A stretch of DNA of 8,756 nt, from IMG/VR virus record IMGVR_UViG_2695420412_000001; one strand, 5' to 3'. Shown here in pieces: positions 2,889-8,031 of this stretch. A program made the translations under genes and the position numbers. The notes under the pieces are model-generated. The model worked only from the letters and a program-made list of their open reading frames with translations. It was not told the origin of the DNA and did not search any database. Source of the stretch: a virus. Lineage: Duplodnaviria; Heunggongvirae; Uroviricota; Caudoviricetes. Position 1 is the first letter of the stretch. Each line of letters starts with the position of its first letter.

Positions 2889-3046
2889 AGCATTCAAAGC
2901 AGAAGGCTTTGGGGTGTATGATACGAAACGAAGCATTGGCCGGAAGTGCGATTCCGGATTAGCTGCCAATGTGCCAATCGCGGGGTGTTTTCGTTCAGGA
3001 CTACAACTGCCACACACCACCAAAGCTAACTGACAGGAGAATCCAG

Positions 3047-3944
<898 letters not shown>

Positions 3945-4532: not shown

Positions 4533-4554
4533 ATGTATAAATAAGGAGCACACC

Positions 4555-4719
4555 ATGCAATATGCCATTGCAGGGTGGCCTGTTGCTGGCTGCCCTTCCG
4601 AATCTTTACTTGAACGAATCACCCGTAAATTACGTAGCGGATGGAAACGCCTTATCGACATACTTAATCAGCCAGGAGTCCCCAAAAATGGATCAAACAC
4701 TTATGGCTATCCAGACTAA
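4555..4719 (+). CDS. cIII: cIII protein (inhibitor of FtsH-mediated CII degradation), 54 aa
   Basis: ATG at 4555 after SD aaggag. Translation [54 protein letters not shown] matches lambda CIII. Too short for the ORF track. Confidence 0.93.
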   Translation: MQYAIAGWPVAGCPSESLLERITRKLRSGWKRLIDILNQPGVPKNGSNTYGYPD

Positions 4720-5207: not shown

Positions 5208-5993
5208 ATGAGTACAGCACTCGCAACGCTGGCAGGGAAGCTGGCTGAACGTGTCGGCATGGATTCTGTCGACCCACAGGAACTGATCACCACTCTTCGC
5301 CAGACGGCATTTAAAGGTGATGCCAGCGATGCGCAGTTCATCGCATTGTTGATCGTTGCCAACCAGTACGGCCTTAATCCGTGGACGAAAGAAATTTACG
5401 CCTTTCCTGATAAGCAGAATGGCATCGTTCCGGTGGTGGGCGTTGATGGCTGGTCCCGCATCATCAATGAAAACCAGCAGTTTGATGGCATGGACTTTGA
5501 GCAGGACAATGAATCCTGTACATGCCGGATTTACCGCAAGGACCGTAATCATCCGATCTGCGTTACCGAGTGGATGGATGAATGCCGCCGCGAACCATTC
5601 AAAACCAGCGAAGGCAGAGAAATTACGGGGCCGTGGCAGTCGCATCCCAAACGGATGTTACGGCATAAAGCCATGATTCAGTGTGCCCGGCTGGCCTTCG
5701 GATTTGCGGGTATCTATGACAAGGATGAAGCCGAGCGCATTGTCGAAAATACCGCATACACTGCAGAACGTCAGCCGGAACGCGACATCACTCCGGTTAA
5801 CGATGAAACCATGCAGGAGATTAACACTCTGCTGATCGCCCTGGATAAAACATGGGATGACGACTTATTGCCGCTCTGTTCCCAGATATTTCGCCGCGAC
5901 ATTCGCGCATCGTCAGAACTGACACAGGCCGAAGCAGTGAAAGCTCTTGGATTCCTGAAACAGAAAGCCTCTGAGCAGAAGGTGGCTGCATGA
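5208..5993 (+). CDS. bet: Bet (Red-beta single-strand annealing recombinase), 261 aa
   Basis: Translation [94 protein letters not shown]... matches lambda Beta. Stop overlaps the exo start (ATGA). Confidence 0.95.
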
Positions 5994-6670
5994 CACCGGA
6001 CATTATCCTGCAGCGTACCGGAATCGACGTGAGAGCTGTCGAACAGGGGGATGATGCGTGGCACAAATTACGGCTCGGCGTCATCACCGCTTCAGAAGTT
6101 CACAATGTGATAGCAAAACCCCGCTCCGGAAAAAAGTGGCCTGACATGAAAATGTCCTACTTCCACACCCTGCTGGCTGAGGTTTGCACCGGTGTGGCTC
6201 CGGAAGTTAATGCTAAGGCGCTGGCATGGGGAAAACAGTACGAGAACGACGCCAGAACTCTGTTTGAATTCACTTCCGGCGTGAATGTTACTGAATCCCC
6301 GATCATCTATCGCGACGAAAGTATGCGCACCGCCTGCTCTCCCGATGGTTTATGCAGTGACGGCAATGGCCTTGAGCTGAAATGCCCGTTTACCTCCCGG
6401 GATTTCATGAAGTTCCGGCTCGGTGGTTTCGAGGCCATAAAGTCGGTTTACATGGCCCAGGTGCAGTACAGCATGTGGGTGACGCGAAAAGATGCCTGGT
6501 ACTTTGCCAACTATGACCCGCGCATGAAGCGTGAAGGCCTGCATTATGTCGTGGTTGAGCGGGATGAAAAGTACATGGCGAATTTTGACGAGATGGTGCC
6601 GGAGTTCATCGAAAAAATGGACGAGGCACTGGCTGAAATTGGTTTTGTATTTGGGGAGCAATGGCGATGA
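5990..6670 (+). CDS. exo: Exo (Red-alpha 5'-3' dsDNA exonuclease), 226 aa
   Basis: Translation [65 protein letters not shown]...FGEQWR matches lambda exonuclease. Confidence 0.95.
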
Positions 6671-6846
6671 AGCATCCTCGCGATAATATCCGGGTAGGCG
6701 CGATCACTTTCATCTACTCCGTTACAAAGCGAGGCTGGGTATTTCCCGGCCTTTCTGTTATCCGAAATCCCCTGAAAGCACAGCGGCTGGCTGAGGAGAT
6801 AAATAATAAACGGGGGGGGCTGTATGCACAAAGCATCTCCCGTTGA
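6661..6846 (+). CDS. orf60a: Small early-left protein, lambda orf60a-like (61 aa as called; an alternative start at 6667 is possible)
   Basis: ORF overlapping the exo stop (atggcgatga). Position immediately after exo corresponds to lambda orf60a. Identity is assigned by position and size; I cannot recall the sequence. Confidence 0.6.
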
Positions 6847-7015
6847 GTTAAGAACGAGTATCGAGATGGCACATAGCCTCGCTCAAATTGGAGTCAGGTT
6901 TGTGCCAATACCAGTAGAAACAGACGAAGAATTTCATACGTTAGCCGCATCCCTTTCACAAAAGCTGGAAATGATGGTGGCGAAAGCAGAAGCAGATGAG
7001 AGAGACCAGGTATGA
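6824..7015 (+). CDS. orf63: Small early-left protein, lambda orf63-like, 63 aa
   Basis: 192-bp ORF, the same length as lambda orf63, in the corresponding position. ATG at 6824 lies 5 nt downstream of a G8 run. Confidence 0.65.
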   Translation: MHKASPVELRTSIEMAHSLAQIGVRFVPIPVETDEEFHTLAASLSQKLEMMVAKAEADERDQV

Positions 7016-7095
7016 CAACCACTGAATGCATTTTCCTGGCAGCGGGCTTCATATTCTGTGTGCTTATGCTTGCCGACATGGGGCTTGTTCAGTGA
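7012..7095 (+). CDS. Candidate 27-aa hydrophobic micro-protein (MTTTECIFLAAGFIFCVLMLADMGLVQ), translationally coupled to orf63
   Basis: ATG at 7012 overlaps the orf63 stop (ATGA). Eighteen largely hydrophobic residues could form one transmembrane helix. Found by hand; below the ORF-track size cutoff. No similarity claim. Confidence 0.25.
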   Translation: MTTTECIFLAAGFIFCVLMLADMGLVQ

Positions 7096-7307
7096 CACCT
7101 CAGCAAGAAAACGCCCTTCGCAGCATTGCCCGTCAGGCTAATTCTGAAATCAAAAAAGCCAGACAGCAGTTTCCGGATAAAAACGTCGATGACATTTGCC
7201 GTAGCGTACTGAAGAAGCACCGCGAAACGGTAACGCTGATGGGATTCACACCGACTCATTTAAGCCTGGCGATCGGCATGTTAAACGGCGTCTTTAAGGA
7301 ACGGTGA
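7026..7307 (+). CDS. Hypothetical small protein in the lambda orf61 position (93 aa from ATG 7026; an alternative GTG start at 7092 gives 71 aa)
   Basis: Open frame ending at 7307. The C-terminal two-thirds (TPQQENALRSIARQANSEIKKARQQFPDKNVDDICRSVLKKHRETVTLMGFTPTHLSLAIGMLNGVFKER) looks like genuine coding sequence. The start is uncertain; the first 22 codons overlap the micro-ORF in another frame. Confidence 0.55.
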   Translation: MHFPGSGLHILCAYACRHGACSVTPQQENALRSIARQANSEIKKARQQFPDKNVDDICRSVLKKHRETVTLMGFTPTHLSLAIGMLNGVFKER

Positions 7308-7329
7308 GCATGAAAAACAAAATCATCAT

Positions 7330-7350
7330 GGAGCTACAGGCTCCTTTTTT
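7330..7350 (+). terminator. Weak intrinsic-terminator-like hairpin (ggagc/tacag/gctcc + TTTTTT) between the 93-aa ORF and orf73
   Basis: 5-bp GC-rich stem at 7330-7344 followed by T6 at 7345-7350. Alternatively the region could encode a 29-aa ORF (7310..7399, MKNKIIMELQAPFLLFAFTLKRINQQFRD). Confidence 0.3.
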
Positions 7351-7405
7351 ATTATTCGCATTCACCCTCAAGCGTATTAACCAACAATTCAGGGATTAAT
7401 GAAAG

Positions 7406-7627
7406 ATGGCAGACATCATTGATTCAGCATCAGAAATTGAAGAATTACAGCGCAACACAGCAATAAAAATGCGCCGCCTGAACCACCAGGCTATATCTGC
7501 CACTCATTGTTGTGAGTGTGGCGATCCGATAGATGAACGAAGACGCCTGGCCGTTCAGGGTTGTCGGACTTGTGCAAGTTGCCAGGAGGATCTGGAACTT
7601 ATCAGTAAACAGAGAGGTTCGAAGTGA
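7406..7627 (+). CDS. orf73: TraR/DksA-family C4 zinc-finger protein (lambda Orf73-like), 73 aa
   Basis: Translation MADIIDSASEIEELQRNTAIKMRRLNHQAISATHCCECGDPIDERRRLAVQGCRTCASCQEDLELISKQRGSK has the CxxC-X17-CxxC zinc finger and N-terminal helix typical of TraR-like RNA-polymerase-binding proteins. Confidence 0.8.
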   Translation: MADIIDSASEIEELQRNTAIKMRRLNHQAISATHCCECGDPIDERRRLAVQGCRTCASCQEDLELISKQRGSK

Positions 7628-8031
7628 GCGAAATTAACTCTCAGGCACTGCGTGAAGCGGCAGAGAAAGCCGGTGAAGATAAGTGGCAGGCTAAAAAAAT
7701 AAATGGTGATTTTTTCGTTATTCGTCACGGTAGTTATACAAGACAGCATGGCTACACATCGTATCAACCCATTGCGGAGATTGATTGTAAGCCAGTCCGG
7801 GATTTTGTTGCCAAGGCTAATCCGGCTACCGTGCTGGAATTACTGGATGAACTGGAAGCAGCAAAAAAGCGCATTGCAGAACTGGAAGCGCGGGAAATAC
7901 TGCTCCCGGAACGTAGCAGCATGCTTCATCGAACAGATTTTCACGATGATTACCAAACGGTAATGGCATACAAAGTTTCTGAAGTCATCGATGCAATCCG
8001 CGCTACTGGCATTCGCATCAAAGGAGAGTGA
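7624..8031 (+). CDS. Ead/Ea22-like protein, 135 aa (GTG start overlapping the orf73 stop)
   Basis: GTG at 7624 (GTGA overlap with the orf73 stop) preceded by SD gagagg. N-terminus MSEINSQALREAAEKA... and C-terminus ...GIRIKGE resemble lambda Ea22 termini as I recall them. The centre is short and coiled-coil-like (LELLDELEAAKKRIAELEA). Confidence 0.55.
   Translation: MSEINSQALREAAEKAGEDKWQAKKINGDFFVIRHGSYTRQHGYTSYQPIAEIDCKPVRDFVAKANPATVLELLDELEAAKKRIAELEAREILLPERSSMLHRTDFHDDYQTVMAYKVSEVIDAIRATGIRIKGE

Follow-up and report, generated by a model that had tools for sequence, protein, structure and literature searches.

Which protein, if any, is encoded between orf63 and orf61 in the early-left (pL) operon of lambdoid phages? 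The question is raised by an 8,756-nucleotide stretch of viral DNA (IMG/VR record IMGVR_UViG_2695420412_000001, Caudoviricetes), hereafter the window, in which two overlapping frames lay claim to the same bases. A first-pass annotation had noticed a 27-codon small open reading frame (smORF) that opens on the orf63 stop codon, had described its product as a plausible single transmembrane helix, and had pointed out that either this peptide or the upstream part of the next open reading frame (ORF), 93 residues long, was likely not real. Selection, the start sites of distant homologs, and a mosaic junction settle that choice for the peptide. We consider it quite probable that the smORF truly codes for protein in the pL operon of lambda, 434, and Shiga toxin (Stx)-type phages, with coupling at either end, and that its product is probably a membrane micro-protein with a single helix.

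The smORF runs from 7012 to 7095 on the plus strand, with 27 codons encoding MTTTECIFLAAGFIFCVLMLADMGLVQ and a TGA stop at 7093-7095. Its ATG (7012-7014) overlaps the orf63 TGA (7013-7015) in an ATGA quartet (7012-7015), as had been reported, and its stop overlaps the start codon of a downstream 71-residue gene in a GTGA quartet (7092-7095); the gap from orf63 to the 71-residue gene is filled exactly, with 4-nucleotide overlaps at both ends. The described partial overlap with the 93-residue ORF in another frame (7026-7307, plus strand) was found as well. The GTG at 7092, missed by the first-pass annotation, is ATG in lambda and 434, and this A/G change is silent in the smORF (CAA/CAG) and retains a valid downstream start codon. 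The 5' ATGA is kept in all 379 loci, in orf63 and methyltransferase contexts alike, and the proposed coupling to orf63 thus involves an invariant overlap. At the 3' junction, all 384 loci have A/GTGA, with ATGA in 367 of them and GTGA in the remaining 17. Start and stop codons overlap on both sides as expected of a translationally coupled cistron, in two unrelated upstream contexts. In the second of these, seen in approximately 26-40 loci depending on the sample (e.g., E. coli strain A3), a Dam-type N6-adenine methyltransferase gene stands in place of orf63; its stop overlaps the same ATGA, and homology to the window begins exactly at 7012. This edge places the start of the recombining module at the smORF ATG and not at 7026. 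Termination-reinitiation at ATGA is common in phage operons, and the locus shares with other coupled phage cistrons the 4-nucleotide overlaps and the weak downstream Shine-Dalgarno (SD) sequence, here invariant in approximately 380 loci; it differs from the usual arrangement in that a complete gene of 27 codons stands as the middle cistron and fills the gap exactly.

We gathered 434 loci from IMG/VR, phage records, E. coli genomes, and gut metagenomes, 396 of which match the region, and counted synonymous and non-synonymous (S/N) alleles with each of the 121 distinct haplotypes entering once, the silent fraction expected under random mutation being 0.25-0.28. An intact smORF (ATG, 27 codons, and stop) was present in 375 of 379 covering loci. 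One of the 379 carries an indel, and among the 378 gap-free copies the peptide is identical in 335, many silent differences notwithstanding; substitutions concentrate at third codon positions of the smORF. S/N in the smORF frame was 10/5 for alleles on at least 2 haplotypes, 6/1 for those on at least 5, and 3/0 for those on at least 10, a silent excess with a binomial p of approximately 0.002-0.006, whereas the 93-residue frame over 7015-7092 gave 2/13 and 0/7 at the first 2 of these thresholds. An independent sample of 80 metagenome-only contigs gave 7/2 in the smORF frame against 1/8 in the 93-residue frame, and all 4 differences between the window and lambda within the smORF are silent in its frame. 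Non-synonymous variants that recur (i.e., are not singletons) are for the most part conservative (T3A, F8L, A10V, and V26A), E5K recurs as well, and some non-conservative changes are found among the rare singletons. Purifying selection acts on the amino acid sequence of the smORF frame and not on the 93-residue frame; the comparison across related prophages that had been proposed as a check therefore found the reading frame conserved.

Could the open frame and the silent excess be an accident of small numbers in an untranslated spacer? In favor of a spacer are the approximately 30 variable alleles behind the counts, the youth and clade-specific occurrence of the gene, and the fact that current RefSeq annotation by the Prokaryotic Genome Annotation Pipeline (PGAP) leaves the stretch unannotated. 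Against it, the binomial excess was replicated in the separate metagenome sample, and the adjoining 31-residue control ORF (7304-7399, plus strand) lacks such a signal, with S/N of 5/8 and 3/7 for alleles on at least 2 and at least 5 haplotypes and of 5/16 over all alleles. Constraint at the RNA level does not explain the conservation either, since the fold of 6990-7130 is weaker than those of shuffled sequences (z +1.69), on which ground an RNA element was rejected; an Rfam scan of the window returned only Lambda_thermo, the cIII thermoregulator at 4542-4600. We regard the spacer as quite improbable.

The third-position pattern might also be ascribed to a 61-residue ORF on the minus strand (6894-7079), which shares its wobble positions with the smORF. 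This ORF is open in all orf63-context loci, with its first 22 residues nearly invariant and an S/N of 13/14, but the common silent sites 7083 and 7092 lie outside it, and where the methyltransferase stands upstream, another sequence makes up its C-terminal half, and its ATG has become ATA in 10 of 40 loci. Further, its body overlaps orf63, a gene whose product has a solved structure, with its wobble falling on orf63 second codon positions and with radical R/W, H/R, and I/M changes, and it is oriented against the pL operon, no promoter-like site having been found ahead of it. We judged it a shadow ORF and not a gene, and an origin of the pattern there is barely credible.

A coding smORF bears directly on what orf61 is. 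The reading in which the 93-residue ORF from 7026 (or the 61-residue orf61 of lambda) is the real gene, and the 27-codon frame a chance overlap, draws on annotation: the 93-residue form, "orf61" in Stx phages, is annotated in 933W, Phi24B, other Stx1/Stx2 phages, and many recent phage records, PHROG 303 was built on it, and one locus (L090) has an in-frame N-terminal extension. The homologs contradict this reading, as do the S/N counts given above and the mosaic junction at 7012. An exhaustive HMMER search identified distant homologs of the 71-residue protein, 69-89 residues long and 32-48% identical to it, with one at 65%. All 19 of them (32-65% identity) align from residue 1, equivalent to the Met at 7092, none shares the N-terminal extension, and in their loci the stop of the upstream gene lies directly before that Met; the motif they share is NALR..AR..N.EIK...P...D.I.R.IL...E..K.LG...L...IGVLNG.F.ER. 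The real orf61 is therefore the 71-residue gene at 7092-7307 (plus strand; WP_000188870.1; three predicted helices), and the 5' part of the 93-residue ORF (7026-7091) is non-coding. The 71-residue gene itself gave S/N of 15/7, 12/3, and 9/0 for alleles on at least 2, 5, and 10 haplotypes. An AlphaFold2 model of the 93-residue form has predicted local distance difference test (pLDDT) scores of 42-57 at residues 1-20 and confident helices at 25-48, 54-71, and 76-86, all within the 71-residue part, and the ATG at 7026 has a weak SD sequence (-3.8 kcal/mol). Orf61 constructs formed insoluble aggregates and yielded no soluble protein (PMC6213356). The ORF from 7092 is the one annotated in PGAP/RefSeq genomes and in the CPT record of 434, with 7016-7091 left empty. 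No confirmation of a start at 7026 emerged from any of these comparisons, and we hold a 93-residue gene to be very improbable.

Lambda presents a third version of the same locus. Its RefSeq orf61, of 61 residues, starts upstream of the orf63 stop in the frame of the 93-residue ORF and ends early, a form that depends on CAC GGA, where the window has CAC TGA, and on a run of 7 A residues. The corresponding run inside the 71-residue gene is A6 in the window (7152-7157), in 434, and in 366 of 389 relatives, and the extra A occurs in 20 of 389 loci, most of them apparently lambda itself. In lambda (NC_001416), A7 truncates the 71-residue gene to 29 residues and, with an upstream ATG, yields the 61-residue "orf61". 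Both the 93-residue and the 61-residue annotations are wrong at their 5' ends, and the smORF is the reason why neighboring orf61 annotations disagree. Lambda orf61 (30839-31024) and the Stx-phage Orf61 (vb_24B_7c; PHROG 26061 and PHROG 303) occupy the same DNA and cover the smORF either completely or except for its first 14 nucleotides, but the smORF lies in a different frame, the overlapping part of orf61 lacks coding constraint, and the conserved protein is the 71-residue C-terminal part only.

Two side observations concern these records. PGAP often names the 71-residue protein "cell division protein ZapA", a name backed only by a Pfam match that stays below the cutoff (E 0.014; 16.1 bits, with 23.8 required). 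A Foldseek search of the AlphaFold2 model of the 93-residue form against PDB returned nothing below E = 1, which leaves both the ZapA label and the published "homeodomain-like" label unconfirmed. Further, lambda-identical contigs of approximately 48.4 kb (L091-L104), with the A7 allele included, occur in assemblies labeled Shewanella, Pseudomonas, Bradyrhizobium, Kitasatospora, Oceanobacillus, and others, and almost certainly stem from contamination of these assemblies with lambda DNA.

How would such a gene be translated? In the methyltransferase context, the smORF start is preceded by a strong SD sequence, GGGAGG, 4 nucleotides upstream (-10.3 kcal/mol), and the orf61 start at 7092 pairs weakly with the anti-SD sequence (-3.9 to -4.7 kcal/mol). 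Invariant overlaps together with weak internal SD sequences fit a serial termination-reinitiation from orf63 through the smORF to orf61. Ribosomes ending orf63, or the Dam-type methyltransferase gene, would restart at the overlapping smORF ATG, and those ending the smORF would restart at the overlapping ATG or GTG of the 71-residue orf61. No promoter-like site faces the smORF on either strand. A fusion of smORF and orf61 by programmed -1 frameshifting was rejected, the smORF frame of the window and of lambda containing no X XXY YYZ heptamer. We infer that the smORF is translated, that its product enters the membrane, and that it contributes to the "pro-lytic" phenotype so far credited to orf61.

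The peptide is strongly hydrophobic, with a grand average of hydropathy (GRAVY) of 1.62 that ranks among the highest 0.2% when every 27-mer from stop-free stretches in all six frames of the window is considered, and its best Kyte-Doolittle 19-mer has a mean of 2.33, the usual threshold being 1.6. A membrane helix is predicted for the hydrophobic core CIFLAAGFIFCVLMLA (codons 6-21; 7027-7074, plus strand), and the Hessa-scale sum for the 15-residue core CIFLAAGFIFCVLML is -3.5 kcal/mol. Glu5 and Asp22 flank the core, and the peptide contains two Cys (6 and 16) and no basic residues. No lipobox precedes either Cys in the sequence, and a lipoprotein or signal peptide was accordingly rejected. As a discrete ORF of 27 codons, it falls within the limit of 50 residues applied to small single-pass membrane proteins. 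Judged by its hydrophobicity, the peptide is a probable single transmembrane helix. A chain of 27 residues is released before it leaves the ribosomal tunnel, and insertion of proteins of this size is post-translational; the smORF product would most likely insert in this way into the inner membrane as one helix and act early in lytic growth.

Several findings weigh against this assignment, or limit it. The uninterrupted apolar run spans only 15-16 residues, the Hessa-scale sum is approximately 0 for windows of 19-21 residues owing to Asp22, which makes insertion borderline by this estimate, and no positive-inside signal is present to orient the peptide. The smORF start in the orf63 context (GAGAGAGA) pairs only moderately with the anti-SD sequence (-5.6 kcal/mol). 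Searches with the peptide gave no Pfam match, a best NCBIfam E of 0.034 (below the cutoff), and a best PHROG E of 0.68, and bacterial ribosome profiling cannot separate frames beneath the annotated orf61, to which smORF footprints would have been credited. Diversity is shallow, with DNA divergence of at most approximately 7%, and the selection signal rests on some 30 variable alleles. The ORF has disappeared from two loci: Escherichia sp. E1V33 (L090) has a segment shorter by 14 nucleotides in which the coupled ATG lies in the orf61 frame, so that the smORF is lost and orf61 is N-terminally extended, and in a rearranged prophage (L224), only the last 10 smORF codons are left. Before the distant orf61 homologs (loci L237-L274), no hydrophobic small ORF was found; their junctions are either a direct ATGA overlap with the ATGACA of the homolog or "gcATGACATGACA", a 2-codon ATG-ACA-TGA bridge.

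These last junctions, together with the weak orf61 SD sequence, the invariant 4-nucleotide overlaps at both ends, and the L090 locus, where the coupled ATG reads directly into orf61, are what would be expected if the frame were translated just to pass ribosomes on to orf61, as an upstream ORF with a functionless peptide. Such a relay requires an open frame only, yet the common polymorphisms are nearly all silent (6/1 for alleles on at least 5 haplotypes), 335 of 378 gap-free copies encode the same peptide, and the extreme hydrophobicity is left unexplained. We therefore consider a pure relay rather unlikely and favor a functional membrane peptide.

The "divergent" homologs P0069 and P0075 (approximately 51% identity) were rejected as indel-ridden long-read assemblies of the same sequence and not true relatives, and H69 was explained by an IS1 insertion in orf61 only.

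The absence of the smORF from distant relatives marks it as a clade-specific insertion of approximately 80 nucleotides. In the distant loci, the upstream gene is often a methyltransferase with a C-terminus homologous to that of the E. coli one, and the smORF (ATGACAACC) and orf61 (ATGACACCT) both begin with ATGACA. The ancestral order may have been methyltransferase followed by orf61. An insertion of approximately 80 nucleotides in the E. coli lambdoid clade would then have duplicated the ATGACA start and made the smORF, a young gene that took over the ancestral start of orf61 and inherited its coupled start site, and the orf63 context would have arisen later by recombination at the smORF ATG. 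The locus of the 65%-identity homolog (P0099) was not found in viral or metagenome contigs, both scans returning the E. coli clade only.

Other small genes and replacements occur around the module. In 2 distant loci (L247 and L257), a different small ORF with a hydrophobic stretch (MDWITLIGTVAGLACIARMIWLSNEIRKIFLKGIDRGLW) lies approximately 20-180 nucleotides upstream of the orf61 homolog and may be an independent small membrane peptide at the same position. In L090 (371-1438), the place upstream of the module that orf63 or the methyltransferase otherwise occupies is taken by a DndB-like protein of 355 residues containing a DGQHR motif.

Comparison with known small membrane proteins shows where the smORF product resembles them and where it does not. 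It is like the YohP, KdpF, AcrZ, and CydX class in size (YohP has 27 residues), in having one dominant hydrophobic stretch, and in lying below the minimum length of gene finders. Unlike that class, it shows no sequence relationship, has no basic residues, carries an Asp in the C-terminal part of the stretch, and is phage-encoded and embedded by 4-nucleotide overlaps in an early lytic operon. Type I toxins (Hok, Ibs, ShoB, TisB, and DinQ) are likewise hydrophobic, 19-50 residues long, and commonly prophage-associated, with GRAVY values comparable to that of the smORF product, a comparison on unverified toxin sequences that is illustrative only. Unlike these toxins, the smORF has no promoter of its own, no antisense RNA gene (no Rfam match), and no stand-alone locus; it sits inside a polycistronic operon, coupled on both sides.

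The smORF has escaped description, although it is present in the databases. The exact peptide occurs on 981 contigs in public protein collections as "hypothetical protein" (e.g., GenBank ETI79567.1 and KJW28683.1; UniRef cluster A0A0A2SGE8_ECOLX), and none of the phage and genome records examined annotates the 27-codon ORF. Searches of paper texts did not turn up the peptide string, nor did the Sakai small-gene supplements contain it, and none of the exo-xis papers searched mentions a membrane peptide. It is sporadically called by automatic pipelines and has never been described. Ribosome profiling of lambda has revealed other unannotated small ORFs in the same conserved exo-xis block, and among those quoted are orf2311 (7 residues) and orf2313 (31 residues) but not the 27-residue ORF (Liu et al. 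2013, quoted in PMC8614690).

Several published experiments can be re-read with the smORF in place. The conserved exo-xis block has been defined as orf60a, orf63, orf61, orf73, and ea22, Orf61 of Phi24B has been treated as a 93-residue protein folding into three helices over residues 24-93, with two predictors disagreeing on the placement of its N-terminal segment, and lambda Orf61 has been called "truncated" (PMC8614690). The orf61 deletions made in lambda and Phi24B also remove the smORF. The reverse-transcription quantitative PCR amplicon of Bloch et al. 2014 spans 7073-7141, and this RNA was approximately as abundant as that of N in lambda infection (PMC4195576). The same study introduced a frameshift into lambda "orf61" by means of the primer CTTCATATTCTGTGTG*TTATGC..., with one C deleted, and found that phages carrying it developed with a delay after induction (PMC4195576). 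We mapped this frameshift to C7063, the first base of smORF codon 18, where it converts the peptide into a 42-residue aberrant product that is uncoupled from the orf61 start. The 71-residue gene of lambda is already cut to 29 residues by A7, and the phenotype therefore does not come from loss of a full Orf61; the candidates behind it are the smORF, the doubtful 61-residue product, and polarity.

The hydrophobic cleft of Orf63 binds a designed 20-residue helix, and its natural partner is not known (PMC10869804). As a speculation, the smORF peptide is an obvious candidate ligand of this cleft; its presence in loci without orf63 counts against the idea. A bolder proposal holds that the annotated orf61 of lambda is not a gene at all and that the "pro-lytic" effects come from the 27-residue peptide, either through an action at the inner membrane, with the FtsH/HflKC-CII axis as a possible target, or as a natural helical ligand in the Orf63 cleft. 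We consider this unlikely.

The window holds the early-left (pL) operon of a lambdoid prophage, with its genes in the order N, cIII, gam, bet, exo, orf60a, orf63, smORF, orf61, orf73, and ea22. On the plus strand are a CI-like repressor gene (1662-2291), N (2969-3367), a DUF2528 gene followed by cIII with its thermoregulator, gam, bet, and exo (5990-6670), orf60a (DUF1317; 6661-6846), orf63 (6824-7015; Pfam PF07131 [DUF1382], E 3e-31, annotated as orf63/DUF1382 in lambda and E. coli genomes), and, after orf61, orf73 (TraR/DksA zinc finger; 7406-7627) followed by an ea22-like gene. Positions 6661-7630 are 97% identical to phage lambda, 434, HK630, 933W, Phi24B, and other Stx phages, and 6950-7320 is 100% identical to a prophage in E. 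coli strain C21 and is carried by 3,300 of 5,426 complete E. coli genomes (61%).

Some features of the neighboring genes deserve mention in their own right. In the C21 record, PGAP calls the DUF1317 gene (orf60a) a frameshifted pseudogene, and the window has a 61-residue ORF with a full-length Pfam match. Variation in orf63 (6847-7011) is surprisingly even over codon positions (S/N 17/33), which probably reflects two divergent C-terminal alleles (…ADERDQV versus …ANERDPA-type) swapped by recombination and not relaxed selection. The 31-residue ORF that overlaps the stop of the 71-residue gene (7304-7399), with variation even across codon positions and no coding signal, is probably the orf2313 of ribosome profiling. 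It contains a terminator-like hairpin (stem 7330-7344, followed by a T-run) that equals the predicted terminator t2 of Bloch et al. 2014, and a second such hairpin inside orf60a (6731-6753) is t1 of the same study.

Lambda is the reference temperate phage, and its exo-xis block is shared with the Shiga-toxin phages of enterohemorrhagic E. coli, where it influences prophage induction and hence toxin release. If our reading is true, the reference annotations of lambda orf61 (61 residues) and of its Stx-phage counterparts (93 residues) are wrong at this point, and a fresh look would be needed at the orf61 deletions, the codon-18 frameshift, the yeast two-hybrid clones, the constructs that proved insoluble, and those structure models that cover residues 1-23. 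The smORF would also be a clean case of a young gene, in which an insertion of approximately 80 nucleotides captured the start site of a neighbor and came under purifying selection, and one more early phage product, probably located in the membrane, would join the picture of the decision between lysis and lysogeny.

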